A stretch of DNA of 60,472 nt from a virus. Lineage: Duplodnaviria > Caudoviricetes. Each line of letters starts with the position of its first letter. The first letter of the stretch is position 1. The stretch spans positions 1 through 60,472 of the IMG/VR virus record IMGVR_UViG_3300026519_000014; one strand, written 5' to 3'. Below are positions 11,601-27,372 of the stretch, piece by piece. Position numbers and translations under genes: made by a program. The notes beneath the pieces were generated by a model that was not told where the DNA came from, did not search any database, and worked only from the letters and a program-made list of their open reading frames with translations.

Positions 11601-14600
11601 TTATGAAGACTTAAATATTTTAAATAGAGAAACAATAACTAATGGAGAAAGGGTAAAAGATGGATATACTGTAGCTATTGTTCCAGTTAATAAAAATGAA
11701 GTGGGAGAAGAGCAATATATAGCTTATCCGCTATTAAGACAAAAATTAAATACAAAAGCTAAGTCTTCAATAGTAAAGGCTACTACCATTTTAATGAAAT
11801 CTTTATATTATCCAAAAGCCATTAGTTCAGAAGAAACAAAAATAGCAGATACTATAAAAGAGTTAATTGATGTAGATATAAGAACTATAGAAGGATTTGA
11901 AAAATATTTAACTTTATTTACTCATAATACTTATCCAGAAGGTAGTGGTAACCTTTCTCAATTTATGCTTACGCAAAATGAGAATAAATACGCTATCAAT
12001 GTTACTAGTAAAGGATCAGCAGGAGTATCTTTTGGTAAAGGAGGAAAACAAATTACTAAGACTACTAAGAATGTAATTATCCCTCAAATGTTCAAATCTA
12101 ATCCTGATACTTATATAGAAGGGTTGGAAAATATAGTAGAACACTTGTATGCAAATATTAATGATGCTTTATTAGATGCTGATGTTACAATTCCTGTTAT
12201 CACAGAAGAAAATAAAGTAGAGACTTTGTTTTCAGGAAAGTATACTGAATATGTTAAAACTTACGGCTTACATACCAATGCTACTTATCATGAAATAGGC
12301 ACTGAAGAAAATCCCAAGAGAGTTTATACTATTCAGAGTGTTATTTCTTATGACGATAGTTTTTCTGGTTTTATACCTAAATCCAATCAAAATGAAACAG
12401 TAGCTGCTACTGAAAAACCTGACATAGATAAAGAAACAGTTTTAAAAGAACCTTTTGAACCTTCTGAAAAAGTAAAAAAAGCTCCTCCAGGATTGGAGTT
12501 TATGGATGATTTTGACTTCACTCATTTAGAAGATAAAAATAAAGACATAGAAAGTGAGGAATTGTTTGCACCTTATACCGGAAAAACAGTTTCTGATTAT
12601 ATTATAGAGGGCATTCCAGCACACACACAAAATTTGCTTATAGATAATATTATCTTTAATGTACTCAATACTGTTGAAAACGATGATTTAGTTTTATCTA
12701 GAGTACAAGAAGCTTTAAGTTATTTAACTGAAGTTAAGTTTCCTATGATTAAATCAGAATCTTGGAAACTTAAAGAACTGGTAAGACTTAGATTGCAAAA
12801 TTTAACTAATACTGTTATTCAAAATGAAGAAGAATCTTTAGATTCTACTGAAAATAAGGATGAGGCAAGATCAGTAGAAGAAAAAGATCAAGCTTGGGGA
12901 ATAGATATTTTGACCATTAATCCTAAAGACAGTTTAAGCAGTAGATTAAAACAATTATTTTCTTTTATCCCTTTAGTTAATAAAGAAGATGGAACACCTT
13001 TAAGAACTAAAGAAGGTCTTATTGTTTTTGCTGGGTTTGATAAAACTTATGAAATAGTAATGTCAGAACTTTCTACTAATTTTGATAAGGATACTCCTGC
13101 CCCAAGAACTTTTGATTCTATGATGGATACTCTATTGGCTGCTAAAGATATTTATACTTTTTTGCCTTTTGTTGTAGATAGGCTTAAAAAAGCTCCCAGA
13201 CAACTTAAAAATGAATTTATGGTAAATGCTGATAAGCATTATACTGTTATGCACCATGTATGGAAAAAACAAACCTCAGATGGAAAATTTTATTATAACG
13301 TTTTAAATGATAATGCTAACTCCAGAACTCTTATTATAGAACAAACTTGGAGAAATAATAATTTACAGGTATCTAGGATTTCTAATAATCTTTTAGCTAA
13401 TGGAGAAGTAGTGGAAGAACTTAAAGCCGAATTTGATAAATGGATAACTAAAGATAAACAAATTGAAGATAAGAAGGTACTTAAATGGCTTTCTGATATG
13501 GGTATAACCATTAATCAAAAAACTTTAGATTCCTTTAAAGAAGAAGATATATATGGCTTATCCTATGTAAAACATTTTACTACAAAGGAAGGAATATTTA
13601 AAAATATAAGAGAGGCTCTTAATTCTATAAAAGACGGTAATGAGTTGTTAGAAACTACTTTATATAGAATGAGTGCTTTTAGTAGATTGGCAGCACAAGA
13701 GGGTTTAAACAATAGTATGTATATCCCTGATTCTTTCAGGTCAGGAGATAGTAATATTTATGGTTATCAGGAACAAAAGTGGGCTGTTAAAAGAACTTCA
13801 GATTTAAAATACGATGAAGAAGAGCTAACAAGATTGGCTAAAAATCCTATAACTAAAAACATATCTTGGCTAAAAAAATTAGGAAAACTAGACCCTTCTA
13901 CAGGTAAATTTGTTATAGATAAAGAAAGTAGGTTTTATAAAAATTTTTCTTTTGGTTATGTAGGATTAGCAGCTTTACAGGAAGAAGGTAAATTCTATGC
14001 AAATAAGAAAAAACTTTCTGAGCTGAGTTCTTCTGCTCATGAAGAAGTAAAAAAAGGTTTTTTTGAAAATAGGGCATTAGCTGATAAGTTTGGAAATAGA
14101 GTTGTTAGATTCTTTTTTCCTACTATGTCTGATAAGTCTACAATGTTTACTCTTAAAGTAGAACCTATCAAAATAGCTTATGATATTAATGGAAAATTAA
14201 CTAAAGAAACTATTGATGCTTTATATGATACTATTCTGATTCCTGAAATTAATAGAATGGTAAATCATATAGAAGGAGAAACCAATATAAAAAACTATGA
14301 CCAGGGAGCTATGATGTTTTATAGTGTTCCTGAATTAAATAATATTCCAGAAATATGGAATGGCACAGGAAGTACAAGAAGATTAAATTTAAAAGTAGGA
14401 AGAAAAGGAATAGAAGGAGATACTGTTAAAAAAATTATCAGGGAAAACTTTGAGAAACACTTAAACAACTTAGTGGAAGAACAGTTAAAAGACTGGGAGA
14501 GTTTAGGTTTATATAATGCTGATACTCATGTTTTTAGAGCAGGTTCTGAATATAAAGAATATTTAGATGGTTTAGTTTATGGAGAAATTGGCAGTTCTGA

Positions 14601-17600
14601 AAGAGAGTTTAATAAAGCAAAATTAGCAGCAGCAGATTTTGCTTTAAACTATATGGCAGCCAATGCTAATTTTCAAGTACTTTATGCAGGAGATGCAGCA
14701 CAATATTATGTTGGGGAACCTACATTCAAAGAAAATATAAAAACTGAAGAAGGGGAGTTTAAAAAAGGAGATAAAATACCTGTAAATCATTCATTATATT
14801 ATACTACTATAGCTAAAAATACTTTTATTAATATAGGTAAAAGACTAACTCTTTTAGCAGGGCCTAGAAGAAGTCCTGTATTTATTGAAGGAAAAACCAC
14901 ATATAGACAAGGTTTTGTAGAAGATAAAAGAACTGCTTCTTTAGCAATAGATTATATAAGTTCTATTTATGAAGACAATCCTGAATTTATAGAAAAATAT
15001 AAAAATATAGTAGGTACCGATGCTGTAGAACTTATAACAGTATCTGAAAAAATAGAAATTCTTTATAGAGATGGAAAATTAGACAATACAGATTATAAAA
15101 GACTATTAGAAATTGCTAAAAAAGGAGGAGATTTTTCTTCTTCTGATTTAGGTAAACTTAAAGTATTTCAAGCTGATAAGCCATTATATGCAGGCAAAGC
15201 AGTAGAGCCTAATTCTTTAGTTGAAAGAAGAATATATATTAAATCTGCTGCTATTACTTTAATCCCACAATTTACCAGAGGACTTGAAATAGATAAATTA
15301 AGAGTTCTTATGGAAAATAAGAAAAATCCTGTAAATAGAATAGCTTTTTCTTCTGCTGTTAAAGTAGGAAATGTTAAAAACCCTTTAAATATATGGAATG
15401 AAGATGGCAGTATTAAGGAAAATCTAAGTTTTTCTGAAGATCAGATACTGACCTTAAATAGAAATGAGCATGGCATACAACAAGACATTCCTTATAAAGA
15501 AAAGGATAGTATAAAAAGAGTAGTTCAAGCTTCTAAATTGTCTTTTGTTAATCTGTTGAATAGAGATATTTTGGTAGATAGTAAAAAAATTAAAGGCAGA
15601 GAACTATATGAAAGATTTCAAAAAAATTGGGAATCCTTATATTCTTTAGCAAAAGAGGAGTTTTTTGAAGAATTAGAAGTAGATGTTTCTAAAGATGTTT
15701 GGATACCAAACAGTAAAAAATTAAGTCGCTATATTAAAAGAGAAGCTGAGCTTAGAAACCTTTCTTTACAAGATTTAGAAGGTTTAGAACTTAGAGAAGA
15801 TGGTACTTTTGAATTACCTTTATGGGCTAATGGAGCTAATAAACAGTTTGAAGCTCTTTTAAATTCACTTATTACTAATAAAATACTAGAACAATCTATT
15901 CCAGGCAAAGCTTATGTTTTAGCTTCTGAGGAAGGTTTTCAAAAACAGGTAAAAACTATAGAAGATGTACTAGAAGAACAAAACATTAAAGACATAGAAT
16001 CTTCTGGAATTGTATTTACTGAATTTTGGAATGGTAAAAGTTTAATGCCTTCTATAGAAGGTAGTAATAATCAAGTATTTATACCTTGGCCTTTTAAAGA
16101 TGTTCCTATGGAACATTATATAAAGGATGGTAAAATAGACATGAGTAGAATAGATGCTGATTTATTTACTATGTATGGTATGAGGATACCAAATCAAGGG
16201 CCTAATTCTACAGGAAATTTGGAAATAGCTGGATTTCTACCTGAAGTTATGGGCGATATTATTATAGCTCCCAGAGATTTTGTAACTCAAATGGGGAGTG
16301 ATTTTGATGTGGACAAACTTTATACTTACAGATATAATTATATAGTTACAGATAATGGAGACATACGAAGAATTAAAGAAGAATATTTAAATCCTGAAAA
16401 ATTAAAACTAAGATTAAGTAAAGCAGAAAAACGGCTAAATGAAATTATTCTGTTAGATTTAAAAAAAGACAGACAAAGAGAAAAAAATTTACTTTATATT
16501 CAAATAGAAAAGCTAAACAAATTGCTTGAACCTAATGCTTTAGCCAAATTAAAATTTCAGGATGATATAGTAAAAATACATAGGTTATTAAATGCAGACC
16601 CCTCTAATTTTGTACAAAGACAGATAAAAGCCCCTTTAGGAGAAGGCAGGTTAAAGGAATATTCAGATATTATAGAAAATTCAAAAGATTCTTCTTTTTT
16701 TAGTCCCTATTCTTCTATTTATCAAAGAAATAAATTTAAAAATGCTTCTTCTGGAAATAAAGCTATTGGTGTTTTTGCTATAGCAAATACTTTTAATGCT
16801 TCTGCACAAACTGTTGAAGGCCCTTTAAAAATAGTAGATGGTGATAAAGATTTATATGTAAGATTTGGAAATCAAGTTAGTTATGGAGTGTTAAATAATG
16901 AATTAGCATTAGATAATAAAACATATATTTCTGAGAATATTTCTAATTACCTTTCTGTTGCTGTAGACAATGAAAAAATACAAGCTCTTCATAATTTGAA
17001 CATTAATGATGTTACTTATGGTATAGTAAATTTATTAACCCAACTAGGATTTACTCATGATGTTATTAGTAGTTTTTTAGGTCAGGATATACTTTTTGAA
17101 TTGGTAAAAAAAGTAGAGGAATTTCAAGATAAAGGAGAATCTTCAATTTCTGCTTTAAACAAGGCTTTTAGTGTGCTAGAAAAAGATTCCAAATACTCTG
17201 AAAAAGTTTTTGATGCTTTAGATGAAGATAATAAAAATAAAATATTAAAAAAATATGCAGACAGTAGTAGCGCATTTTTATTTGAAGTTATAAAAAAAGG
17301 AGAAGACCATCCTGACTATAAAATCACCCAAAAAGCTATATTGAAAAAATTTAAATTTCTTAGTAAAAAAGCTGTTTCTTTACAAAATTTACAAAGAATA
17401 ACTAATATAGATTCTTCAGGGATAGGAAAAAACCTAATAGAGAGTAAAGTAAAAGAGGAAGCTTTTGTAGAAGCACTTACAGATAAAAATATTATAGGAG
17501 CTTCTAAGCTATTTGGAGAAATTTCTTATACACCTTTAAAAGGATACCAACAATTTGGAAATATTTACTTTAAGCCTACTTCTATTTCTGGATTTGCAGT

Positions 17601-20600
17601 TATCTATGGAGTTATTCCTAATAATAGGCTATGGAATCAATCCAGATATTTTCCTTATACAGATAAAGCAATTAATGATGTAGTAAAAACTATTATTGAT
17701 ATAAGCAATATTAGAGAATTTGATGAATATCAAAATGTTTCTATAGAAAGTAGAATATTTAATGCTATAAAAAGTTATTATTTTAGTAATCTTGGTGAAT
17801 TAGGGTTTGTAGATACTTCACTACAAAAAGACACCGGTAGATTAGTAAGATATAATTTACTTTCTGAAGAAGGTGTTCTTCAAAATATAATTGCAAAATA
17901 TAGTAATACTTCTTTGTTTATAAATAATCCTTTTTTAAATAAGCTTTCTATTAGAAAAAGGAAAGCTGGAACTCCAGGAAGTATTAATTTTTCTTCAAGA
18001 GATACAGATGTTGTAAGTAAACATAATATTTATGGAGGATTAATAAAACTGCTAAATTCTACTAAAGAACTTCCTGAGCAGATACAGATTAATAATGATA
18101 AAGTTAAACTTATCACTGAACAAGATTTAGCTAGAGCTTTAATAGTTTCTCAATATGCTACAGGAGGTATACAAAAATACACACAATTTTTAAGATATAT
18201 CCCATTAGATTATTTGAAAAAAATAGGATTTACAGAATCTGCTAGAAACTTAGACTTTGCAAAACTTCTTAATGAAGGTAGAGGTAATAATAAATTTCAA
18301 CTTCCCTATATGGTTATTCAATTTTTTCAGCATAATCCCTATTTACTTAATACCCCAGAAGTAAGTATAAGAGAATTTGTAACTAAAGATGCTGAAAAGG
18401 AAGAAGATATAACTAGATTTTCTGTTCCACTACCTTTAAATAAAGCAAAAATAGAAGACCCCACTCTATTAGACCCTATGGTTAAGTTAAAAGGAGAAAA
18501 TAAAGACCATGTTTTTCTTTTTGATGGGAATGAATATATAAGACTAGATAATCTGGGAAGTGTAGATTTTAATGAATATCAAAGTAAAGAAATAACCAGA
18601 AGTGTTATTTATAACAATATAGCAAAAGATAAAAAAGGGGTACCGGTATCTTATTATGATCAAGTAGCAGCTAATACCCCTAAAAAACCTATCATTAATA
18701 AGGCTGATCAACTAAACCACATCACATTAGACCAAAAATATGGTTTTAATGAGGCTGAGCCAACTATCTCTAAAACCTTAATGGCTATATCCAATAATGG
18801 CCCTACTGCTCACAGAGCTCTTGCAGAAGATTATTTGCAAGTGTTTAAAGACGGAGAATACAAATTAGTAATAGATAGAAACTTACCTGCTAAAGGAAGA
18901 CACATAAGAAGTGAAAAAACTGTATTTATTAATCCTGATTTACTAACAGGGGATGAGGATTATAGCAAAACTTTTTTACATGAGGTTACACATATGCTTA
19001 CAGTAGAAGTACTAGAAAATCCTGTTACAGAACAACAAAAGAAAGCCAAAGCAAGTTTAACAAGATTATTAAATGCTTACAGAAAAACTCTCAAATCAGG
19101 AGAACTGGAGTTAGTAAAGAAACAAGTTTCAGAAGCTAAAGAAAAAGGCGTTTCTCCTAAACTAACTGAAGAACAACTTGTAAGAGTATATCCTGCTATT
19201 AATTTAAAAGAATTTGTAGCTGGTTTTATGACTGATGTCAAAGTTCAAAATCATTTAAATAAAGTAGATTTTAATGAAAATACTACTTATGGACAAGAAT
19301 ATGAAAAAAGACTGTTAAAGATTTTAAATTCTATAAAAGGTTTTGAATTAACTTCTACTTCTGCTCAAGCTATAAGAGAAGTAATTGCTTTAATAGATTA
19401 TCAAGATGAAGTTAAATTAAATCCAGTAGTTTTAGCTAAAATGGAAAATTCTACTTCTAATAGTGTAGATGCAAACTCCAGAGTTAGAAAAAAATCTATT
19501 AAACATACTGAAGAAGATGTAGGCATAAAAAGTTCTATAGCACAGGCAGAGGCTAATTTCTTAGAAGACAATTATGAAAATATGATAACTTCTGCTATAA
19601 ATAAAGCTGTGGATAGAATGGCTCCTATTGATGAAAATAATATTCCGCCAGAACCCACTACTTTTGAAGATTTACCAGCAGCCACTAAAAAAGAAAAAGA
19701 CGAAGAAGCACCAATATCAGATTTAGTCCATCCTTCTATTAAAAATAAACAGGCTATTTTAAAAGCTTTAAATAAAAAAGTTAATAGGGACAAAAAAAGG
19801 ATGCATGATTCTACTGATCCTAAAGTAGGAGTTTATTATGAGAATAGAATAATAAGAACTAAAGAAAAAATAGCTGAAATAGAAGAACAAATTGCTGCTA
19901 TTACAGGAATGAATACTTATTCCACTACTTTAAAGATAGCTGAAGAAGATTTATCTTATGTAGATACTTTAGTTAGTAGTGATATAAGGCTTATTACTTC
20001 AGAAGATATGGAAATAGTGGATAGTATTATTACACTATGGAAAAATTTTAAAAAAGAAGAATTTGTTGAAAAAATTTATAGTTCTTTAGACACTGAAAAA
20101 GATTTTAACAATATAAAAAATAAAGCCGAATCTTTAGAGGATAAGTTACATGATATAGCTATAGAAAAGACCAAATCTTTTATTAAAAGAGAGTTGCCTA
20201 AAGCTACTTCTGAAGATATTAAAAATCTAATGGCTATATCTGATGATATAGGAGTAGCTTCTTCTTATATATATGACCTTTCGAGGGTAGATAATGTAAT
20301 AGCTCAAGCTATGTCCAAATCTATTTTAAGAACTAATGACTATATAACTGAAGAAGTTACTAAAGTAGCAGAAGAAATAGACCCTATTTTACAAAATGCT
20401 GAAAAAGCGTTAAAAAAGCTGGGTCTTACTTTTGATGTTTTTATGCAAAAAGATGAAAAAGATAGATATACTGGTAGAATAATAATGCCATACTCCCAGA
20501 AATTTTTTAATTTGCTTAAAGCTAATTCTGAAAAAGCCTTTAGCCCAGAGGCTAGTAAAGAAGATAGACAAGCATATAGAGAATGGAGAAAACTTACTCA

Positions 20601-23001
20601 AATAACAATAAATCCTTCTAAATTGGAAGATAAAAAATATGTTGAAACTCTAATTAAAGAGGTAGGAAATGAAAATATAGAATATATTAAAAAACAAGCT
20701 ATTAGAAGGCAGGAATACTATAATAAAGCTTTAGAAAGAGAGCAAATAAGAATAGATACTAATCCTGACTTATCTAAAGAAGAGAAGAAACAAGCTATTA
20801 AAAAATGGGCAGAAGAAAATAAATTTAAATATCAAATATCTATCCCAAGAAAAATAAATACCAGAGGAGAACCTACTGGGTTTTATGATAGCAAGTTTGA
20901 AATAATTCAAAATAACCCAGACTTAAAAGTATTTCATGAATATACAATAGATTTACTTTCTAAATTAGGTAAATATTCTACTAACAAAAGAACCCCTGTA
21001 AATAGTATTCCTTTAATGCAAAAGGAGTTTTGGGAGGCGGCTAAAGGGAAAGACAGTCAAGGTATTTTTAACCTTATGGCTGATGCCATGAAAAAAGGGT
21101 TGAGGGCTAAAGGTGCTTATGAAGATTATATTACAGAAATAACTTCTGGAAAAAGAACCCTTTCTAATAATTTTAATGAAGTTACTAAAAGACAGTTGGC
21201 TGATAGATTAGTAGTTAAAGAATTACAGTATAAGCAGAAAACAAATAAAAACCCTACTAAAACACAAATTAAAGAATGGAAAGCTGATATTATGGATGAG
21301 CTTACTAAAGAAAGCTCTTTAGACATTGGTAAAATATTAAAAACTTATGCTGCCACCGCTATTGCCTATAAGCATAAAAGTCAAGTAGAAACACCTTTAA
21401 GAATAGCTGAAAAATTATTAAAAGAAGTAAAAGCTGCTGAAAGAAGTTCTTCTGGAGCTATTATTAATGACTTGGTAAATAAAGGTATAGATGAACAAGG
21501 GCTTATCAATATTAATAACATGGTTACCAGTACTTTAAATCATTGGTTTGGTGTTAAAAAGCCTGAAAAAATAAACAAAAAAAGTAAAGTAAAATATACT
21601 TCCGAAGAGAAAAAAACCAAAATTAAATTAGATAAAATAATAGCTACAGCTAAGGAGAATATTGAAAAATTAAACAAAAGCTTAAAAAATGCTTCTATAA
21701 CAGAAGATAGATATATAAAAAAGATAGCTGTAGAACAAAATGCTATAGATACTGCTCAAAAACAATTAGATAAACTAGGAGGTGTGATTTCTAAAGAACG
21801 TATCTTTAAAGGTACCATGAGATATATGCAACTTTTAGGTATGGGTTGGAATGCTGTAGCTGGAATAGCTAATTTAGGTTTTGGGCTTATTTCAAATACT
21901 AATGAGGGAATAGGAGGAGAATACTATACTACAAAAGAATTTTTTAATGCTCTTGGGGATGTTATAAAAGGGACTTTATTTGGTATAAAAACTGAAGATG
22001 GTAAAAAACAATCTATTCTTATGAAAAGATGGGGAATCTTACAAAAATCTTCACAAGAAACTTTCAAAAGAAAAACAGCAACCAATAAGTTACTTAATTT
22101 TTTAAATCCTTATAAGATTCAAGATACTACTGAGTATCTTAATCAAGCTCCTATAATGGTATTAATGCAGAAAAAAACTCCTGTATTAGATTCTAAAGGA
22201 GAGCCTGTAGTAATAAATGGAACTAAAATAAATTTTTATAATGCTTATGATAAAGATGGAAATTGGAAAACAGGTATTTTAGGAGAAGAAAAAAACTATC
22301 AAAAACAGAAGGACGACCTTAGAATACTTATAGGAGATTTAATAGCCAGAAATCATGGTAATTATAATAATGAGGGCAGACATTTAATGGTGAAAGATAG
22401 TTTAATAGGGCAATCATTAACTCAATTTAGGACTTGGATGTTAGAGGGCATAGGAAACAGATTTAGAGAGGAGTATTTTGATAGAATTACAGGAACTATT
22501 AAAAAAGGTAGATATGTGACTATTTATGAAGATTGGGAGAGAGCAGCTAAATTATTATATAGTGCTAAAACATGGAAAGAGTTATCTATTGTAGATAGAG
22601 CTAATGTAAGAAAAACATTAGCAGATATAGGAATGCTATTATCTTTTATGGGGTTTGTTACTTTACTTAAAGGTGCAGCAGAAGATGAAGACGATGAAGA
22701 TAAATTAGCAGTATTGCATTTACTTATTAATATTGGTTTAAGGATGCAAACAGATATAGCTTTTTATGTTAATCCAATGGAAGCTGAAAGACTTACTCAA
22801 TCTACTATTCCTGTAGCATCTTTAGTTTCCAGAGCTTCAGGATTAACGCAAGCTATGTATAAATATATAATGGACGAAGATGAAATAACTAATGGAATAT
22901 ATGCAGGGGAAAGCAATTTATTACATAAAGGATTTAACTCTATACCATTTGGAAAAGCTATATTACAAGTTCATAAAACAGCAACAAGACCATTCAGATA
23001 A
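8602..23001 (+). CDS. Giant virion-packaged DNA-dependent RNA polymerase polyprotein with a zincin protease domain
   Basis: 4799 aa. RIPNQG...GSDFDVDKLY catalytic loop (DFDVDK at 16300-16317) as in crAss-like/phi14:2-type RNAPs; HEVTH...NLKEFVA zincin motif (18979-18993); Gly/Ala-rich hydrophobic N-terminal region. Confidence 0.9.
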   Translation: MALTEEQVNAALNGEVKPASEASTEPKLTEEQVEAAMNSANILYGWGQGEQVNPDDFGFNLKTGDFDNFLYRAQDQGWGVQLGNAAARIVPNAALEIIGGVGSIFDFEDYLNQDNEVGNSLVRASNEGKEAINEAFPIYRERPGTSLDIGDSAWWFENGSGIVSSAAAFVGMGMGTGAVLSKGAQALQWVAKAGGMVRTAVRIRKASKLIIPGLNTLALNQAEGMLTATEIYDETLKRGIKQGLSQDEAKRIAAASASHSINVNRANILLNATSVAAITKGVNKGVTRQILKKEAMGRAVALESAQEYAEEVINLYAEKEGKRKADFDLLGKYYETKPTTWAERLSNTVFSIEGLEAGILGAVGGAAQTGFTHAGRNIAINGKSKNAELNERIQQQQSFISNLDGVLKSQGTKNFTTNSAGLDELRKSVEERNNLLALAEEYTKKGEEVPSKLATKILISGDAILTDQALANFQQGTTEYLESWYKDVQKATVEEAVAMGYTGEQLNENSPVHYSKMAERALTKIKEFEKIYQQHYAYKGLGSIMANRIAAKATIESIKEANIELDKLKTEAEEFNKTLPLYGNEFRVLVEDFDRVSKTGTPKAKRYITQAKKKRGLQPYLKAVERQKNIIKELKNLEKEYKKLISDEYQNKLKKIEEEIEKKEIEKQEKAVVKAKEDKDLAEIQDDTEDQAEAVNVPEASVNTPIEETSPEVEGHRGYVGPIVEISEEEAEKQAILEEIIGEVKRSYEEEIKKEVGISETEQREEIAEENAKYIEDIQESRDIAEGKSFDVKDQTTIKNNIVAIDEKLSSQNKTDNKASSVAYLAETILSKENTEIDPIVFNYNEVNVGTPVTLRVDTSYTGNVYYKGNEVPWQGLKSSLTEQELLEKTPIVIMVGDKTIGYVHDTEWFTLYNIGKGALEKSETEPSLKEKKIAEEKLAEEKERNRAIRKSVLEKGSINTTISYRGNGIIPTIEQGTKPVSEALPGIKIAVIKKNTLSDYEDLNILNRETITNGERVKDGYTVAIVPVNKNEVGEEQYIAYPLLRQKLNTKAKSSIVKATTILMKSLYYPKAISSEETKIADTIKELIDVDIRTIEGFEKYLTLFTHNTYPEGSGNLSQFMLTQNENKYAINVTSKGSAGVSFGKGGKQITKTTKNVIIPQMFKSNPDTYIEGLENIVEHLYANINDALLDADVTIPVITEENKVETLFSGKYTEYVKTYGLHTNATYHEIGTEENPKRVYTIQSVISYDDSFSGFIPKSNQNETVAATEKPDIDKETVLKEPFEPSEKVKKAPPGLEFMDDFDFTHLEDKNKDIESEELFAPYTGKTVSDYIIEGIPAHTQNLLIDNIIFNVLNTVENDDLVLSRVQEALSYLTEVKFPMIKSESWKLKELVRLRLQNLTNTVIQNEEESLDSTENKDEARSVEEKDQAWGIDILTINPKDSLSSRLKQLFSFIPLVNKEDGTPLRTKEGLIVFAGFDKTYEIVMSELSTNFDKDTPAPRTFDSMMDTLLAAKDIYTFLPFVVDRLKKAPRQLKNEFMVNADKHYTVMHHVWKKQTSDGKFYYNVLNDNANSRTLIIEQTWRNNNLQVSRISNNLLANGEVVEELKAEFDKWITKDKQIEDKKVLKWLSDMGITINQKTLDSFKEEDIYGLSYVKHFTTKEGIFKNIREALNSIKDGNELLETTLYRMSAFSRLAAQEGLNNSMYIPDSFRSGDSNIYGYQEQKWAVKRTSDLKYDEEELTRLAKNPITKNISWLKKLGKLDPSTGKFVIDKESRFYKNFSFGYVGLAALQEEGKFYANKKKLSELSSSAHEEVKKGFFENRALADKFGNRVVRFFFPTMSDKSTMFTLKVEPIKIAYDINGKLTKETIDALYDTILIPEINRMVNHIEGETNIKNYDQGAMMFYSVPELNNIPEIWNGTGSTRRLNLKVGRKGIEGDTVKKIIRENFEKHLNNLVEEQLKDWESLGLYNADTHVFRAGSEYKEYLDGLVYGEIGSSEREFNKAKLAAADFALNYMAANANFQVLYAGDAAQYYVGEPTFKENIKTEEGEFKKGDKIPVNHSLYYTTIAKNTFINIGKRLTLLAGPRRSPVFIEGKTTYRQGFVEDKRTASLAIDYISSIYEDNPEFIEKYKNIVGTDAVELITVSEKIEILYRDGKLDNTDYKRLLEIAKKGGDFSSSDLGKLKVFQADKPLYAGKAVEPNSLVERRIYIKSAAITLIPQFTRGLEIDKLRVLMENKKNPVNRIAFSSAVKVGNVKNPLNIWNEDGSIKENLSFSEDQILTLNRNEHGIQQDIPYKEKDSIKRVVQASKLSFVNLLNRDILVDSKKIKGRELYERFQKNWESLYSLAKEEFFEELEVDVSKDVWIPNSKKLSRYIKREAELRNLSLQDLEGLELREDGTFELPLWANGANKQFEALLNSLITNKILEQSIPGKAYVLASEEGFQKQVKTIEDVLEEQNIKDIESSGIVFTEFWNGKSLMPSIEGSNNQVFIPWPFKDVPMEHYIKDGKIDMSRIDADLFTMYGMRIPNQGPNSTGNLEIAGFLPEVMGDIIIAPRDFVTQMGSDFDVDKLYTYRYNYIVTDNGDIRRIKEEYLNPEKLKLRLSKAEKRLNEIILLDLKKDRQREKNLLYIQIEKLNKLLEPNALAKLKFQDDIVKIHRLLNADPSNFVQRQIKAPLGEGRLKEYSDIIENSKDSSFFSPYSSIYQRNKFKNASSGNKAIGVFAIANTFNASAQTVEGPLKIVDGDKDLYVRFGNQVSYGVLNNELALDNKTYISENISNYLSVAVDNEKIQALHNLNINDVTYGIVNLLTQLGFTHDVISSFLGQDILFELVKKVEEFQDKGESSISALNKAFSVLEKDSKYSEKVFDALDEDNKNKILKKYADSSSAFLFEVIKKGEDHPDYKITQKAILKKFKFLSKKAVSLQNLQRITNIDSSGIGKNLIESKVKEEAFVEALTDKNIIGASKLFGEISYTPLKGYQQFGNIYFKPTSISGFAVIYGVIPNNRLWNQSRYFPYTDKAINDVVKTIIDISNIREFDEYQNVSIESRIFNAIKSYYFSNLGELGFVDTSLQKDTGRLVRYNLLSEEGVLQNIIAKYSNTSLFINNPFLNKLSIRKRKAGTPGSINFSSRDTDVVSKHNIYGGLIKLLNSTKELPEQIQINNDKVKLITEQDLARALIVSQYATGGIQKYTQFLRYIPLDYLKKIGFTESARNLDFAKLLNEGRGNNKFQLPYMVIQFFQHNPYLLNTPEVSIREFVTKDAEKEEDITRFSVPLPLNKAKIEDPTLLDPMVKLKGENKDHVFLFDGNEYIRLDNLGSVDFNEYQSKEITRSVIYNNIAKDKKGVPVSYYDQVAANTPKKPIINKADQLNHITLDQKYGFNEAEPTISKTLMAISNNGPTAHRALAEDYLQVFKDGEYKLVIDRNLPAKGRHIRSEKTVFINPDLLTGDEDYSKTFLHEVTHMLTVEVLENPVTEQQKKAKASLTRLLNAYRKTLKSGELELVKKQVSEAKEKGVSPKLTEEQLVRVYPAINLKEFVAGFMTDVKVQNHLNKVDFNENTTYGQEYEKRLLKILNSIKGFELTSTSAQAIREVIALIDYQDEVKLNPVVLAKMENSTSNSVDANSRVRKKSIKHTEEDVGIKSSIAQAEANFLEDNYENMITSAINKAVDRMAPIDENNIPPEPTTFEDLPAATKKEKDEEAPISDLVHPSIKNKQAILKALNKKVNRDKKRMHDSTDPKVGVYYENRIIRTKEKIAEIEEQIAAITGMNTYSTTLKIAEEDLSYVDTLVSSDIRLITSEDMEIVDSIITLWKNFKKEEFVEKIYSSLDTEKDFNNIKNKAESLEDKLHDIAIEKTKSFIKRELPKATSEDIKNLMAISDDIGVASSYIYDLSRVDNVIAQAMSKSILRTNDYITEEVTKVAEEIDPILQNAEKALKKLGLTFDVFMQKDEKDRYTGRIIMPYSQKFFNLLKANSEKAFSPEASKEDRQAYREWRKLTQITINPSKLEDKKYVETLIKEVGNENIEYIKKQAIRRQEYYNKALEREQIRIDTNPDLSKEEKKQAIKKWAEENKFKYQISIPRKINTRGEPTGFYDSKFEIIQNNPDLKVFHEYTIDLLSKLGKYSTNKRTPVNSIPLMQKEFWEAAKGKDSQGIFNLMADAMKKGLRAKGAYEDYITEITSGKRTLSNNFNEVTKRQLADRLVVKELQYKQKTNKNPTKTQIKEWKADIMDELTKESSLDIGKILKTYAATAIAYKHKSQVETPLRIAEKLLKEVKAAERSSSGAIINDLVNKGIDEQGLININNMVTSTLNHWFGVKKPEKINKKSKVKYTSEEKKTKIKLDKIIATAKENIEKLNKSLKNASITEDRYIKKIAVEQNAIDTAQKQLDKLGGVISKERIFKGTMRYMQLLGMGWNAVAGIANLGFGLISNTNEGIGGEYYTTKEFFNALGDVIKGTLFGIKTEDGKKQSILMKRWGILQKSSQETFKRKTATNKLLNFLNPYKIQDTTEYLNQAPIMVLMQKKTPVLDSKGEPVVINGTKINFYNAYDKDGNWKTGILGEEKNYQKQKDDLRILIGDLIARNHGNYNNEGRHLMVKDSLIGQSLTQFRTWMLEGIGNRFREEYFDRITGTIKKGRYVTIYEDWERAAKLLYSAKTWKELSIVDRANVRKTLADIGMLLSFMGFVTLLKGAAEDEDDEDKLAVLHLLINIGLRMQTDIAFYVNPMEAERLTQSTIPVASLVSRASGLTQAMYKYIMDEDEITNGIYAGESNLLHKGFNSIPFGKAILQVHKTATRPFR

Positions 23002-23032
23002 AAAAAGGGAGAAAATTACTTCTCCCTTTTTT
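23001..23032. terminator. Bidirectional intrinsic terminator where the late and early/middle units converge
   Basis: AAAAAAGGGAGAA-aattac-TTCTCCCTTTTTT between convergent stop codons. Confidence 0.9.
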
Positions 23033-23491
23033 CTATAGAAACCACTCTTTTTTAGGGGCTTCTAATAATTCAGCATGATCTTCTATTATTATATTTAATT
23101 TTTCTTCAAGATACTTTTTTAATCTGGGGTCTTTATCTAACCCAAGAATAATATCATGGGTAGCAGGTAGCCCGGAATTTTTTTTGATATGCTGTTTAAT
23201 AGAACCAGGAATAGTACTATATTTACCTGTTACAAAGGCTTTTATAGTTTTTGTTAATCTGGCAGGAAAGTTATAAATAATGATATTATCATTTTCTATC
23301 TTCTTATCAAAAGCAGCAACATTAAAAGCAGTATAATGAACGTTAGCTATATTATAAGTGAAACAAATTAATTTTAAATTTTTAATATCAAGTTTTACAG
23401 ATTTTAAATTGCTTTTTCTTTGATAACTTCCAAAACTACAAAAATTGACCCCTGCTAATGGAAGTAAATAATACGTTACTAAGTTATGCAT
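23033..23491 (-). CDS. Hypothetical phage protein
   Basis: 152-aa ORF ending at the terminator. Confidence 0.7.
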   Translation of the reverse strand: MHNLVTYYLLPLAGVNFCSFGSYQRKSNLKSVKLDIKNLKLICFTYNIANVHYTAFNVAAFDKKIENDNIIIYNFPARLTKTIKAFVTGKYSTIPGSIKQHIKKNSGLPATHDIILGLDKDPRLKKYLEEKLNIIIEDHAELLEAPKKEWFL

Positions 23492-23774
23492 TAAAGCAAT
23501 ATTTAAAAAGTTCTTAAATATTAAAAGGTAATTTTTGCCCTACTAAGATAAAGGGATACTAAGAAATAAGCAAAAACAACAAACCCTATTTAAAGGGTAT
23601 TTAGTCTATCTTAGATAGTCTTTCTTAACCAATAATATTGTAATAAATTTTCCAAAGTTTTCCATTATAATATATTTTAATGCAGTATAGTGGCTAAAGT
23701 TAATAGCCTTGCAAGGTCTTGTTGTAATTTTATGGTTAGTCATTAAGACTACTAGTCTTGTCCGTTGTAGTGCA

Positions 23775-23993
23775 CTAGTACCTGTGAGCATTTTGAGCGT
23801 TATTAATAGCTCTCTTTAGTTCATTTGCTAATACAGTCATTTTCTTGTCATCTATTTCTATAACAACAAATTCTTTTCTGTTCCAATGCTCTCTAACCTT
23901 TATTTTAGATTGATCACTTTTTAGTCTTTTTTCTTCTGTTCCGTTGATTTCGTATACTTTAATTAGGTTAGTACTTTCAAATCTGCTGCTCAT
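23775..23993 (-). CDS. Small hypothetical protein (cassette gene)
   Basis: Likely start MSSRFEST; the stop is followed directly by a TGCACTACAAC core. Confidence 0.7.
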   Translation of the reverse strand: MSSRFESTNLIKVYEINGTEEKRLKSDQSKIKVREHWNRKEFVVIEIDDKKMTVLANELKRAINNAQNAHRY

Positions 23994-24097
23994 ATTTTTC
24001 TTTTTTTGTTGTTTATAACTAATATTAAATTTTTTTTTCACGTTCTTCTTTTTTTTGCTGATACTTCTAAAATTTAGGAATTGCTAAATATTTGAAT

Positions 24098-24373
24098 TTA
24101 ATTATCAGTATTATTATCAGATATTAATCCTAGGTTACTTTCATTTATTCCTTTCAATAAAGTATAACCTATAATATTAGGTTTGTATGTTCTTTTATAA
24201 CTTGGAAGTCCTTTAAGAGTTACATTAACCAAAGGCGTCCATTGGCTGTCCCACACACTACCATCTTTGTTAATACTTTTTAACCAATTGTATATTTTTA
24301 TACAGTCTTCAGCATCTTTTTTGGTGTCAGGATTTTTTAGTTGTTTTTGTAATCTATCTAATAATTTTCCCAT
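24098..24373 (-). CDS. Small hypothetical protein (cassette gene)
   Basis: 91-aa ORF inside the array. Confidence 0.7.
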   Translation of the reverse strand: MGKLLDRLQKQLKNPDTKKDAEDCIKIYNWLKSINKDGSVWDSQWTPLVNVTLKGLPSYKRTYKPNIIGYTLLKGINESNLGLISDNNTDN

Positions 24374-24433
24374 GACTTAAAACGTTTATAATAATGTATT
24401 TTATTAGCAGCGTTGTAATTAACATAATCCTAT

Positions 24434-24640
24434 CTAAAATTCTTCACCACATTTTGTGCATTTATTTAAAACGGCATCATCTCCAATTACAACATAATCA
24501 AATGGATGATTACAATTTTTATTGCTAATTTTTTGTAGTTTAATCCTTGCAATAGTTATCCTATCGCTAATTTCTTCGTGAATTGCATCCTCAAACTCAC
24601 GGAGTACCTCATCTATATATTCTGTATTATCCGTATTCAT
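24434..24640 (-). CDS. Small protein with a C-terminal Zn-ribbon (CxH...CxxC)
   Basis: CNHPF...KCTKCG; followed by an ATTACAAC core. Confidence 0.7.
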   Translation of the reverse strand: MNTDNTEYIDEVLREFEDAIHEEISDRITIARIKLQKISNKNCNHPFDYVVIGDDAVLNKCTKCGEEF

Positions 24641-24675
24641 AATTTATATAGTTAAATTTGTTTTTTGTTTACTTT

Positions 24676-24721
24676 CCTAATAACAGCAACTTTTGTTGCG
24701 CTTGACCCCTGTTAGCAACCA
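24676..24721 (-). repeat. Short attC-like site
   Basis: Minus strand TGGTTGCTAAC-AG...GCAAC-aaaa-GTTGC-T-GTTATTAGG. Confidence 0.55.
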
Positions 24722-24723
24722 TA

Positions 24724-24957
24724 CTACAATAGTTGGTTGCATTTAGCGGATGGGTCTTTACTCCCTCCTCCATATTTACATTCATCACAATCAATCTTAG
24801 TGTTATATTCACAATCATATTCTATGCCCCATCCTATGTCTGGTATTTCATATCCTTTGCATTTTGGGTGTCTTGTGTCAGTACGGTTGCTAACAATAGA
24901 TATACCCAAATTGGCAAATCTTTTGTTGACTGAAACATTTTCCTTTTTATTACACAT
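24724..24957 (-). CDS. Cys-rich small protein whose N-terminus is encoded inside an attC-like hairpin
   Basis: MCNKK...LGISIV|SNRTD...CDECKYGG...C; the GTT of the core is the Val codon. Confidence 0.7.
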   Translation of the reverse strand: MCNKKENVSVNKRFANLGISIVSNRTDTRHPKCKGYEIPDIGWGIEYDCEYNTKIDCDECKYGGGSKDPSAKCNQLL

Positions 24958-25026
24958 TGTTTTAAATTTTTAATTACTATTATTTTAATTGCCAATCAGT
25001 GTGTATATCCCAATCCGTTGGTTGCT
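24885..25026 (-). repeat. attC-like site (~142 bp) with a start codon in its loop
   Basis: Arms pair: gatatac 24899-24905 with gtatatc 25003-25009, attggcaa 24910-24917 with ttgccaat 24989-24996; cores AGCAACCAAC and GTTAGCAACC. Confidence 0.7.
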
Positions 25027-25084
25027 ATTTAATTTAAAAAAAGCTCATCCAACTGTTCAGCCATAGCTTCTGCTGGCCACTGAT

Positions 25085-25506
25085 GCCCAACACCGTATAC
25101 AATTAAAAAATTGGAGTTAGTCATTTTTAGAAGTTTTAGTTGGGTCAACCATGAAATAATAAATGTTTTTTGTTTCTTTATCATACCTTCTTTTAATTTC
25201 TTCATGCCATTTTTTAATAAGATACATGGCAACCTTTAATTTGTAGAAACCACAATTCCTTTTATTTAAAGGATAATTAATGCTTGGATTGAATTTTTCG
25301 TAATTTCCAACTTCCGTACATATTCCTATCCATGACCTTTTACCAAGAATACCAATCTTTGACAATGACATTTGGGGATAGTAAACTTTATCTCCATTAT
25401 TTTTCTCTTCTACTTTAATTCTAAATTTTGGGTCTGTGAATGTTCTCATTTTTTATATTTTTAGTTAACTAATTTTCTAATTATATACTTTTTTCGTTAC
25501 CCACCA
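25085..25506 (-). repeat. attC-like site whose arms enclose a whole gene
   Basis: gtatacaattaaaaaattggagtta (25095-25119) is the near-complement of taactaattttctaattatatac (25466-25488); cores GTGGGTAAC and GTTGGGC. Confidence 0.65.
25117..25449 (-). CDS. Hypothetical protein lying between the arms of an attC-like site
   Basis: 110-aa ORF with an A-rich leader. Confidence 0.7.
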   Translation of the reverse strand: MRTFTDPKFRIKVEEKNNGDKVYYPQMSLSKIGILGKRSWIGICTEVGNYEKFNPSINYPLNKRNCGFYKLKVAMYLIKKWHEEIKRRYDKETKNIYYFMVDPTKTSKND

Positions 25507-25722
25507 TTAAGGCAGTTCGGTAATTATATAGTTTATAGCCATATTTATATCAGTTTCAATCTGAAATTTAAAGCCTTTGAAATCATACACTTTTTTATCC
25601 TTTACTCTTTCAAGGCTGTATTTTTGCAATAGTTCATAAATCTCTGGGAGTGTAAGATTATCCACGTTTGCTTCTATATTTAAGTTTATTGTCATCATAG
25701 TTTCTATTTTGCCTGCGCTCAT
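25507..25722 (-). CDS. Small hypothetical protein
   Basis: 71-aa ORF; the stop is followed directly by a TGGTGGGTAAC core. Confidence 0.6.
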   Translation of the reverse strand: MSAGKIETMMTINLNIEANVDNLTLPEIYELLQKYSLERVKDKKVYDFKGFKFQIETDINMAINYIITELP

Positions 25723-25840
25723 GTGCTTTTAATCTATTTTCTCGTTTGATATCAGCCATCCATTGCAGCACTTGAATAATTCCAATGGTTTCATATCCTT
25801 GTTTCTGCAACTCTTTTAATCTTTTTTCAAGTTCTTTCAT
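25658..25840 (-). CDS. Small hypothetical protein
   Basis: 60-aa ORF overlapping the next gene. Confidence 0.5.
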   Translation of the reverse strand: MKELEKRLKELQKQGYETIGIIQVLQWMADIKRENRLKAHERRQNRNYDDNKLKYRSKRG

Positions 25841-25865
25841 TTTTTTCAGTTACCCATAATAAAAA

Positions 25866-26123
25866 TTACTTACGTGTGTATGTGTCAATACCACCCTCAT
25901 AGTTTTCATAACCTAAAGCCATTGCAATACAAAACATTTTAGTTCTTGCGTTACATTGTTCCATATAGTCAAGAGCTTCATATAGTATTTCAATCTTCTT
26001 AGCTTGTGTTAATTCACTAAATTGTTTTGCTATAAAAGCTTGTGTGTACTTCTTTTTAACTTCTGTTTTCATAATCCGTAATTTTAAAATATGCCTAACA
26101 ATAAATATAGCAGAGTGGGGCAT
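25866..26123 (-). CDS. Small hypothetical protein (cassette gene; true start may be MKTE)
   Basis: The frame crosses the GTTAGGCAT core; an ATGGGTAAC core follows the stop. Confidence 0.65.
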   Translation of the reverse strand: MPHSAIFIVRHILKLRIMKTEVKKKYTQAFIAKQFSELTQAKKIEILYEALDYMEQCNARTKMFCIAMALGYENYEGGIDTYTRK

Positions 26124-26225
26124 CGTCCCAAATCGCCATATAGTACCTTTTATTTAATTTAGTGCAAGATTGAAAGTTGGTACTGCTATCTTCCCACCTT
26201 GCCATATTTTTGTAACGTTATATTT
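26091..26225 (-). repeat. Best-preserved attC-like site (~135 bp)
   Basis: Minus strand AAATATAAC...AAATATGGCAAGGTGGG...AGTACC...GGTACT...CCCACTCTGCTATATTT..GTTAGGCAT; GTTAGGC fits the GTTRRRY consensus. Confidence 0.75.
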
Positions 26226-26340
26226 AAGTTTGCTTAAATAAGGAACATTTTTTTAAACATACTGAATCCGTCAACCATGAATCACAACTTTTCCATGCGC
26301 CAGTATCCTTGCAAACATCCGCTCGTGCCTCGCTAAACAT
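26224..26340 (-). CDS. 38-aa four-cysteine peptide (mini cassette), below the ORF-track cutoff
   Basis: MFSEARADVCKDTGAWKSCDSWLTDSVCLKKCSLFKQT, bracketed by GTTATGTTTA and TAAATATAAC. Confidence 0.55.
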   Translation of the reverse strand: MFSEARADVCKDTGAWKSCDSWLTDSVCLKKCSLFKQT

Positions 26341-26359
26341 AACAACTGCTATGTCAGTA

Positions 26360-26848
26360 TTATTTTTTCTCTATATCTGACACAATTTCACACTCGGAAG
26401 ATGGAACAAAAAACATATTTTGTCCTTCCGAAACTGTAATACCTAACTTCATATCCTCAAAATCAACACCAAGCAATATAAAATCTACAGATTCAGCGTA
26501 GTATCCGTTACTTTCTCCATACCATCTAATATCTACATATCCTTTAATTGTTGCGAATTTATAATAAGTCCAAGTACAAGACCCCCGAAGATTCCCTTGC
26601 TTTGTTAGTTCAATGTCTTCTTTAGAAGATGGCTCATAATTAGAAACTTCTTCTGCTTTTAGTATTGGGCCCCCAACCAAATCTTGTAAGTCACCAACTA
26701 TATCTTGGATCGAGACACTTTCGCAACAATCTTGCCTGTGATACATTTTATATTACTTTCCATCTTCGCAAGTGAATATTATCTCGTCATTATCTATTTT
26801 TTCTACTTTTGTAAGTGTTTTGCCAATCAATTCTTTTAATCTTGTCAT
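26360..26848 (-). pseudogene. Phage protein (YHxQDCCESV type) interrupted by an in-frame TAA
   Basis: [44 protein letters not shown]...; the stop is at 26753-26755, in frame with the 128-aa ORF. Confidence 0.7.
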
Positions 26849-26968
26849 TTTATTTAAGTTTTATATTTACAAACCGCGTATGTATTTAATTCAATCACGC
26901 CACGTTACCATCATCTAATTTTTCAAAAGTTATTTTGTCCATAATCTATGTAATTTCATATTTTAAAT

Positions 26969-27196
26969 TTAGTTTTCACGAACACGAGCATTCCACTTTT
27001 CTTCTAATATTAACCCTATTTCTTTTTTAGACTTTCTACCACCTAAATATGGATTTTCGGCATAAGTCATCTGACAGCCGCATACGCTACATTCTAAATA
27101 ATGTATTTCTTCACCATATCTGCTGTTTGTATTTTCTTCTCTATATTTTTTTGAGATAGAATTATTTCCACAAAAAGGACAGTTTAATAATTTCAT
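26969..27196 (-). CDS. Lar-like restriction-alleviation / Zn-ribbon protein
   Basis: MKLLNCPFCG...CSVCG...KWNARV is the Lar family pattern. Confidence 0.75.
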   Translation of the reverse strand: MKLLNCPFCGNNSISKKYREENTNSRYGEEIHYLECSVCGCQMTYAENPYLGGRKSKKEIGLILEEKWNARVREN

Positions 27197-27198
27197 AA

Positions 27199-27372
27199 TT
27201 ACAACTTTAATAATCTTAAAAATGTTATGCTTATCAACGCGAACCCGCAAATTAGCTGATAAGGGAACCATCCCAAACCAACATAATAAATAGCTCGAAA
27301 TTTCCCAAATTTAGAATCACGGTAAACAAAGTAAATTCCTATTATAGGAATCCAATATTTAAATTCAGACAT
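27199..27372 (-). CDS. 57-aa membrane protein not in the ORF track
   Basis: MSEFKYWIPIIGIYFVY...YQLICGFALISITFLRLLKL fills the gap between its neighbours. Confidence 0.6.
   Translation of the reverse strand: MSEFKYWIPIIGIYFVYRDSKFGKFRAIYYVGLGWFPYQLICGFALISITFLRLLKL

Follow-up and report, generated by a model that had tools for sequence, protein, structure and literature searches.

The DNA considered here, referred to as the window, is the whole of IMG/VR virus record IMGVR_UViG_3300026519_000014, a linear sequence of 60,472 bases from what can reasonably be regarded as a distant crAss-like phage. The record is estimated to be 63% complete, with 37% of the genome missing. The minus strand between 23.7 and 26.9 kb probably carries a partly eroded, integron-like array of mobile gene cassettes that are split by attC-like sites. 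In form it resembles a CALIN, which Cury et al. 2016 (PMC4889954) describe as a cluster of attC sites lacking an integron-integrase. This reading is supported by a covarying family of sites, by arms that are specific to each cassette, by a cassette shared with other phages and, in relatives, by the linkage of such arrays to a tyrosine recombinase. A first-pass annotation, made from the letters of the window alone, had already proposed integron cassettes at this place. The core of that proposal, cassettes bounded by attC-like sites, finds support that comes largely from beyond the window, and corrections are needed as to the sites, the enzyme and the strand. Taken by itself, the window shows less than this, namely a decayed array in which two sites are intact.

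The site family and the cassette signature

The sites of the family have a common layout, which is given here for the gene-sense strand. A site opens with an arm of 13 nt that has [T/C]AAC at its end and in most cases begins right behind a stop codon. Then come G plus 3-5 bases and an imperfect inner stem of 10-22 bp that often has GTATATG at its start and CATATAC at its end. The inner stem encloses a loop of 10-150 nt, and 1-3 bases further on a 13-nt arm starting with GTT[A/G] leads into the next gene. This is an attC-type palindrome, with R and L boxes, an unpaired spacer and a variable loop. The sites are 47-198 nt long (median 115), and the two intact sites of the window span 125 and 130 nt when counted from TAAC to GTTA. 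The length of attC sites is about 57-141 bp.

A covariance model, R1, was built on 20 aligned sites that were taken from five records of other phages, none of them from the window. RNAalifold of the 20-site alignment gives a TAACG/TGTTA outer stem plus an 8-bp inner stem, and the stems covary. Pairing is found in 95.8% of the 260 cells compared to 25-54% in slid controls, and double changes occur in 30 cells vs 7.5 +/- 2.2 in shuffles, a value of 30 being reached by 0/500 shuffles. On 84 kb of relatives' loci the model gives 41 matches at E<=0.01. With few exceptions these lie on the gene-sense strand and form arrays.

In the window R1 makes two full-length matches (sites A and B, Table 1), both on the gene-sense strand and 1.06 kb apart. 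The E-values are 2.6e-7 over 7 kb and 2.2e-6 over 60 kb for site A, and 2.1e-8 and 1.8e-7, respectively, for site B. With filters off over both strands of the whole 60 kb, the third-best match reaches only 16.4 bits (E 0.9). It is a partial match at 43273-43337 on the minus strand, with TAACG nearby at 43194, and is probably noise. With default filters R1 has no match in the window, and thus the default filters lose such AT-rich matches. An Rfam scan of 22.5-28 kb returned sub-threshold chance matches only and no attC match. Site A has the 5' arm ...AAATATAAC (26229-26217), an imperfect inner stem and the 3' arm GTTAGGCAT... (26099-26087), with the core GTTAGGC at 26099. An open reading frame (ORF) of 36 aa listed at 26095-26205, inside this site, is probably spurious. 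Site B has the 5' arm AATAGCAACCAAC (25029-25017) with the core AGCAACCAAC at 25017-26, a long inner stem, the spacer ATT and the 3' arm GTTAGCAACCGTA (24894-24882) with the core GTTAGCA at 24894. Its loop contains the ATG (24957) of a listed 77-aa ORF.

Could the pattern in the window be produced by chance in AT-rich DNA? The first-pass annotation had relied on AAC cores shortly after stop codons. The small genes are on the minus strand, so these cores are minus-strand sequence, and there all of them are present. Bare AAC within 25 nt past a stop is at chance level, being found behind 8/15 ORFs of the region and behind 16/38 controls (the other minus-strand ORFs of >=60 aa between 27.3 and 52.5 kb). 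The longer motif YAACG ([T/C]AACG) is clustered: 12/22 of its minus-strand copies in the window fall in 23,000-27,300, which is 7% of the window (binomial P 5.5e-9), and it occurs within 25 nt past the stop of 5/15 region ORFs vs 0/38 controls. Half-site nhmmer profiles are not significant for most cores. The profile of the 5' half has no match at E<=10 even at sites A and B, and since it misses both real sites the half-site test is without power for the remaining cores. At the YAACG remnant 23763..23775 a weak R1 match is seen (23819-23694, 13.8 bits, E 0.34). Chance may account for the cores at 24412-19, 25849-57, 26335-43 and 26904-12. It is refuted for sites A and B, where two full-length matches of 45-51 bits stand against a 16-bit background, and for the arms at 24711-24723 and 25496-25508 that are discussed below.

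The signature of a cassette is in its arms. The nine variable positions of the 13-nt arms were compared over 57 R1 matches. The GTT arm before a gene and the AAC arm after the same gene match at 6.2/9 positions (46 consecutive site pairs, 25/46 at >=7), whereas the arms on either side of a single hairpin match at 3.46/9 (n=57). For unrelated arm pairs the value is 3.34 +/- 1.44 of 9 (n=2928), with 1.9% at >=7 and 0.5% at >=8. The pairing spans genes of up to 369 aa. In this family, therefore, cassettes open with a stretch complementary to the first bases of their own 3' sites. Such a match per cassette is the trace expected of excision and insertion of circular cassettes at the hairpin base, and a plain intergenic hairpin leaves none. 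In the window the arms of the cassette 24894-24711 (24894-24882 and 24723-24711) match at 8/9 variable positions, the upstream one sitting within the listed 77-aa ORF. The 10/10 complementarity claimed earlier for this pair is real. Complementarity had also been claimed for the pairs 25849-26099 (7/9) and 26217-26343 (9/10), which reach 5/9 variable positions each in a hand count; with a background of 3.3 +/- 1.4 this is not significant and is what chance could give.

One cassette of the window has been found elsewhere. In a blastn search of GenBank phages, 25495-25699 matches the 462-kb uncultured phage LR756500 at 79% identity. The 63-aa protein is encoded in 8 IMG/VR loci (contigs of 22-429 kb) and in LR756500, that is, in nine other phage records, where the cassette stands between different neighbours and has 73-91% nucleotide identity to the window. 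The gene is framed by an inverted repeat in 7/10 alignment rows, with an upstream arm of the form GTTA+6+GTT and a downstream arm of the form AAT+6+TAAC directly past the stop. Between phages the arms show compensating changes (ACCCACC/GGTGGGT, AGCCACC/GGTGGCT, AGCTACC/GGCAGCT). In the window the upstream arm is lost, the preceding ORF overlapping, and the following hairpin is lost as well. The AAC arm behind the gene is conserved in the nine other records, which is a further point against chance.

Pairwise blastn of the 6-kb loci shows the 63-aa cassette as the sole shared DNA, save in one pair with an extra 46 + 62 nt. Among 28 pairs of distinct sequences, homology ends <=2 nt from AAC in 13, extends 7-11 nt further in 2 and stops earlier in 13, where similarity is weak; in 0/28 does it run through the next hairpin. 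For the window, homology with its relatives stops at 25495/25496. Two pairs of records, L004 = L005 and LR756500 = record G005 over 19 kb, are not informative on insertions or deletions. Upstream, some pairs (L006 with L007, L006 with L008) are alike from the GTT arm onwards. In the L003/L004 pair homology starts at the AAC of the preceding site, the upstream hairpin being shared as well, and one hairpin half is common to unrelated positions of two records. Breakpoints at G/TT cores, as the first-pass annotation had predicted, are therefore part of the picture, and limits at AAC are the other part. With breakpoints at both AAC and GTT, exchange seems to take place on both sides of the hairpin, and the exact crossover point is a matter of inference.

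A Xer-like recombinase beside the arrays of relatives

Among five array-bearing records, PF00589 exceeds its cut-off in one and is weakly matched in another (E 0.004, 13.9 bits); one of the five has a serine recombinase. The serine recombinase was rejected as the enzyme, as it is present in 1/5 records only. It has 221 aa and is encoded at 1198-1863 of locus L003, with the 63-aa cassette about 1.1 kb downstream of it; the phage record, 62 kb long and 98% complete, has no tyrosine recombinase. In a phage record rated 100% complete (L018), a 274-aa PF00589 protein is encoded about 200 nt past the last site of an array and on the same strand. The same locus has further sites downstream of the recombinase gene in the opposite direction (10130-10559, minus strand) and a separate array about 9 kb upstream.

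The best family matches of the 274-aa recombinase are XerA, XerD and XerC, and the integron integrase family TIGR02249 gives 131.5 bits vs a cut-off of 265. The profile of the recombinase family aligns end to end with the structures of XerA and XerD. Against IntI4 (2a3v) the alignment splits into 12-176/11-179 and 200-270/246-316, leaving about 43 IntI4 residues without a counterpart. An IntI-specific additional domain of ~35 residues near patch III has been described by Cury et al. 2016 (PMC4889954). A gap is found where this domain is expected, and the linked recombinase is therefore Xer-like and not IntI. The IntI-like recombinase of the first-pass annotation has to be given up for the enzyme that is tied to the arrays of relatives.

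Homologues of the recombinase (38-40% identity) were picked by protein similarity alone. IMG/VR holds 4 further loci, one of which lies at a contig end and is not judgeable, leaving 3 that can be assessed with the original one. In species-representative genomes the recombinase was found on contigs of metagenome-assembled genomes (MAGs) from Flavobacterium, Chitinophagaceae and Segetibacter, and a relative with 27% identity occurs in Psychroflexus. At 7/7 assessable recombinase loci attC-like sites lie just upstream on the same strand. At 3/7 loci the sites were recognised by a stem scan, the best R1 match being weak at two (E 0.019, 0.056) and missing at the third. On the MAG loci R1 gives E 0.002-0.056, with no match at the Segetibacter locus, and the stem scan there reveals sites that are richer in GC and keep the layout, with self-complementary arms. 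In 6/7 loci a conserved ..TATATGTAC.. box abuts the last AAC arm about 55-65 nt ahead of the ATG, and a CTATAAT-like element comes after it. The box and the element may represent an attI-like site with the promoter of the recombinase.

A mechanism can be proposed from these features. The sense strand would fold as single-stranded DNA, and a tyrosine recombinase of the Xer/IntI clade would exchange strands at the AAC/GTT base of the hairpin. The cassette would be excised as a circle with its own two arms paired, and the circle could then re-enter at another attC-like site or at the attI-like box beside the recombinase gene. In this scheme the enzyme, the place of strand exchange and single-strand folding in the cell are all putative.

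Competing readings and known systems

Several observations weigh against a mobile cassette array. Within the window, only 2 of the roughly 8 sites claimed by the first-pass annotation have statistical support, the others being half-sites or unproven. The window has no tyrosine recombinase (PF00589, 0 matches at E<=1 in this 63%-complete record), in agreement with the earlier remark that no integrase is present, and no copy of the attI-like box TATATGTAC is found on either of its strands. At E<=0.01 PF00589 is absent from 3/5 array-bearing records, one of which is 96% complete. No excised circle and no presence/absence variant was seen. The hairpins are not consistently linked to one neighbouring gene, and in relatives the cassette ORFs read towards the recombinase gene. 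Strict integron cores (R'' RYYYAAC, R' GTTRRRY) are rare in the family, RYYYAAC occurring in 4/57 and GTTRRRY in 7/57 sites; AAC is kept in 52/57 and GTT in 54/57. By eye, the GTTAGGC of site A fits the strict consensus and the other three cores of the window do not. In addition, the bottom strand had been expected to be the one that folds, and the better fold is that of the gene-sense strand in 43/48 sites (DNA parameters, Wilcoxon 2.6e-8). Conserved G.T/G.U-type pairs occur at two stem positions (16/20 and 13/20 sites). An mRNA structure would show the same pattern.

Is the array of the window still at work? With no recombinase in the window, any current mobility would require an enzyme that is encoded in the 37% of the genome not covered by the record, or one supplied by the host or a co-infecting phage. 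Most hairpins are lost, one upstream arm is lost and an ORF starts in the loop of site B; the array may be a fossil.

The folding data lead to the alternative that survives best, which is nevertheless considered unlikely. The hairpins could be regulatory elements of an operon that act at the RNA level, such as processing sites, stems stabilising mRNA ends or modules like the promoter early stem-loops (PeSLs), with genes shuffled by homologous recombination between conserved intergenic motifs and no dedicated recombinase. The strand preference fits this alternative, as do the conserved G.U-type pairs, which are tolerated on the sense strand only; the two features are equally compatible with a top-strand DNA fold. 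Breakpoints on both sides of the hairpin are expected of exchange at any conserved motif. The hairpin of a mini-site that follows the cassette 24894-24711 matches a terminator-like pattern at 24699-24686. There is also a published precedent, as gene shuffling mediated by PeSLs has been reported for T4-type phages (PMC2839356, PMC4122927). In those reports, as here, small accessory ORFs lie in a hyperplastic phage region with conserved stem-loops where genes shuffle between phages. PeSLs are described there as regulatory motifs used by general recombination, whereas the sites discussed here have cassette-specific arm pairing and, in relatives, a linked tyrosine recombinase. Promoter-like matches are not enriched: sigma-70-type matches number 31 vs 25.6 +/- 4.1 in shuffles, in a scan that does not cover Bacteroidota-type promoters. 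In the text available of the phi14:2 study, no common motif is reported upstream of early transcripts. A T-run terminator lies at the mini-site, and there is none at site A or B. A regulatory role leaves unexplained the repeated, oriented linkage to the recombinase (7/7) with the junction box (6/7 loci), as well as the arm pairing across genes of up to 369 aa. Moreover, IntI1 has been reported to recombine one site of the cluster in Polaribacter phage P12002L (PMC9892861).

It is far less probable that each gene is an inverton or a small transposon with terminal inverted repeats, moved as double-stranded DNA by a tyrosine recombinase. Gene-specific 13-nt inverted repeats do surround each ORF, a tyrosine recombinase is nearby in some records, and Bacteroidota are rich in recombinase-driven inversions. 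However, matches to sites on the opposite strand are rare in the arrays (one lower-scoring second match at a single site, one weak match with E 0.49), and the 63-aa gene has the same direction relative to its sites in 10/10 records. The same cassette among different neighbours across genomes needs excision and insertion, not inversion, and the inner hairpin and conserved spacing would have no explanation. Chance, which the clustering of YAACG and the 8/9 arm match of one cassette argue against, is hardly credible for the pattern as a whole.

The cassette array remains the preferred reading, and its closest counterparts are integrons and CALINs. With these it shares a row of mostly single-ORF cassettes, palindromic sites with AAC/GTT outer arms, unpaired spacer, inner stem and variable loop, and the arm complementarity of each cassette that is expected after excision and insertion. 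Like integrons, the relatives have a tyrosine recombinase of the Xer/IntI clade with a simple site by its 5' end. Like a CALIN, the window has sites without a recombinase. The differences concern both the enzyme and the sites. In contrast to integrons, the recombinase of the relatives lacks the ~35-residue IntI-specific domain and scores under the integron-integrase cut-off, and the cassette ORFs face its gene instead of pointing away. The better fold is that of the ORF-sense strand, most cores depart from RYYYAAC/GTTRRRY, the paired arms are 13 nt long with conserved AAT../..GTT outer ends, and the spacers are unequal, 4-6 nt vs 1-3 nt. The window contains neither an intI with the additional domain nor an attI by an integrase gene, as a complete integron does. 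Xer-dependent modules are another point of comparison, since they too have a Xer-type recombinase, possibly supplied by the host, that acts on short sites bracketing gene modules. In the pdif modules of Acinetobacter plasmids the genes lie between 28-bp double-stranded sites without a hairpin. Integrative mobile elements exploiting Xer (IMEX) such as the CTX phage use a folded single-strand site, and whole elements, not cassettes in arrays, integrate at dif.

Clusters of attC sites in virulent phages have already been published. Qi et al. 2023 (PMC9892861) reported 17 CALINs in 10,705 phage genomes, some of them in virulent phages, and IntI1 recombined 5/6 phage attC sites with attI1. Their clusters are like the present arrays in that attC-like sites occur without an integrase in lytic phages and the cassettes include methyltransferases. 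One of their CALINs is in P12002L, with two predicted attC sites described as divergent in direction. R1 has 10 matches in P12002L (E<=0.014). Nine of the ten are on the gene-sense strand and lie around methyltransferase and Mom-like genes, and the region matched is that reported as a CALIN. P12002L thus belongs to the same site family, which is partly visible to attC finders. The count and the directions differ, two published sites standing against about ten found by R1. The predicted P12002L site that recombined with attI1 under IntI1 (PMC9892861) is not equated with any R1 match, which limits its weight for the cassette reading. The available text of Qi et al. 2023 names no crAss-like phage, Xer-like recombinase or attI-like box. 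The suggestion that such arrays are new for Crassvirales holds to the extent that no report of them in crAss-like phages was found; likewise no Xer-like integrase with attC-like arrays in Bacteroidota was found, in a literature search that left most subscription journals outside. The proposal of the first-pass annotation was largely right in kind: the site family is common to diverse Bacteroidota phages and is tied in relatives to a Xer-like recombinase, not to IntI.

Taken jointly, the features allow a tentative proposal, judged somewhat less likely than not. Bacteroidota and their phages would have a separate integron-like system that has not been described so far. Its integrase would be a short Xer-like recombinase without the IntI domain, its gene preceded by a conserved attI-like box (..AAC-n-TGTATATGTAC..). 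Its cassette sites would fold on the sense strand and have 13-bp cassette-specific arms, with cassettes read towards the integrase. Phages as different as crAss-like phages, a siphovirus and a 462-kb phage would use it to trade small accessory genes, and arrays without a recombinase, such as that of the window, would be served in trans.

The backdrop is that integrons are held to be rare in Bacteroidetes, with complete ones there only in Salinibacter according to the IntegronFinder 2.0 paper, and marginal in phages in view of the CALIN count of Qi et al. A working cassette system would account for the tiny accessory genes that unrelated phages infecting the same host phylum have in common, in this case methyltransferases, Lar-like anti-restriction genes and ORFs of unknown function. 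It would also mean that cassettes can be captured without the IntI-specific domain. P12002L and its Polaribacter host, both of them cultured, would provide a tractable test case.

The array region and its surroundings

The first-pass annotation had counted about ten tiny co-oriented genes. About a dozen small ORFs are found, all on the minus strand, running from about 27.3 down to 23.0 kb and converging on a giant gene. These ORFs and the sites and remnants between them are given in Table 1. The mini-site is a shortened or decayed site.

Table 1. Sites, remnants and small genes of the array region (positions in the window)
Feature	Position	Strand	Details
Lar-like restriction-alleviation zinc-ribbon gene, 100 aa	26969-27271	-	phrog_599 E 1.4e-7; PF14354 under its cut-off; upstream edge of array
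Remnant	26862..26915	-	GATGATGGTAAC-G, ~28 nt, then ..ATACATACGC-G-GTTTGTAAAT; AAC arm + GTT arm, most of stem gone; no R1 match at E<=10
DUF7448 / phrog_2650 gene, two pieces (31 aa, 128 aa)	26753-26848 + 26360-26746	-	
38-aa ORF	26224-26340	-	
Intact attC-like site A	26087..26229	-	R1 45.1 bits, full model length; heuristic stem score 12.5
68-aa ORF	25866-26072	-	
AAC arm-like remnant TATTATGGGTAAC	25849..25861	-	behind 68-aa ORF 26072-25866; no hairpin after
60-aa ORF	25658-25840	-	
63-aa cassette gene	25507-25698	-	internal Met of listed 71-aa ORF
Downstream arm AATGGTGGGTAAC of 63-aa cassette	25496..25508	-	conserved; covaries with upstream GTTA arm in relatives
110-aa ORF	25117-25449	-	
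Remnant	25079..25128	-	stop within ..GACTAAC, 24 nt ending TTGTATAC, GGT, GTTGGGCATC; 3'-half profile E 1.5, not significant
Intact attC-like site B	24882..25029	-	R1 50.6 bits, full length; heuristic score 9; 3'-half profile E 0.008
Cys-rich 77-aa ORF	ATG 24957, ends 24724	-	
AAC arm TATGGTTGCTAAC	24711..24723	-	downstream arm of cassette starting at 3' arm of site B; 12/13 complementary + one G.T
Mini-site	24672..24723	-	AAC arm, 5-bp GCAAC/GTTGC hairpin, one T, GTTATTAGG; not significant with R1
68-aa ORF	24434-24640	-	
YAACG remnant TTAATTACAACG	24411..24422	-	behind 68-aa ORF 24640-24434; no partner found
91-aa ORF	24098-24373	-	
88-aa ORF	23775-24041	-	
YAACG remnant GTGCACTACAACG	23763..23775	-	overlaps stop of 88-aa ORF 24041-23775

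The crAss-like assignment is based on the giant gene. A 4799-aa ORF at 8602-23001 on the plus strand has a DFDVD motif at residue 2567, and the C-terminal 500 aa of its protein resemble crAss-like phage proteins at 21-24% identity. A DFDxD RNA polymerase motif in a giant virion protein has been described as a defining crAss-like feature (10.1101/2020.03.07.982082), and the window encodes such a protein. It also encodes a PolA-type polymerase, a DnaB-like helicase and a large terminase. A search for close relatives by the C-terminus of the giant protein confirmed 0 among 82 candidate stretches in IMG/VR, and GenBank phages reached only 21-25% identity, so that no close relative was found in which breakpoints could be mapped. 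The giant-polymerase region has a homologue in 1/10 array-bearing records searched, a 118-kb record (L010), and therefore the window is probably not the sole crAss-like carrier of an array. The giant ORF ends 32 nt from the convergent 152-aa ORF, and between them is a palindromic hairpin with T-runs on both sides.

Relatives of the Cys-rich 77-aa ORF were sought in IMG/VR and none was found. The DUF7448 / phrog_2650 gene (26360-26848, minus strand) is broken by a single in-frame TAA, and its 128-aa piece lacks the first 29-43 positions of the profile. It may be a pseudogene or a case of read-through or recoding. Within this gene, about 95 nt at 26481-26576 have 74-76% nucleotide identity to Bacillus phages (SBSphiJ, Grass and others), a match at the DNA level to phages of another host phylum.

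Among the relatives, DNA methyltransferases, with DPPY/DPPF motifs in the sequence, are frequent as cassettes beside the recombinase or between sites (5250-5920 of locus L019, 1450-2080 of L022, 29248-32126 and 37305-38816 of L023). A huge phage has about 14 sites in one array (L014, L015). It is represented by the 429-kb IMG/VR record of locus L008 and by the GenBank entry LR756500, 462 kb, which are 100% identical over 19,097 bases and are probably the same or near-identical phages.

One DNA sequencing run (X1), probably the one from which the window stems, gave an assembly graph that breaks at window 24621-24678, and contigs of this run have loose ends at 24434, 25448, 25843 and 26126. A different 76-kb contig of the run contains 35 nt and 51 nt of the window (24434-24468 and 26076-26126) with 267 other letters between them. 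The 35-nt stretch is the end of a 68-aa ORF and the 51-nt stretch is the 3' half of site A. Such sharing near cassette ends is suggestive of mosaicism and is too weak to count.

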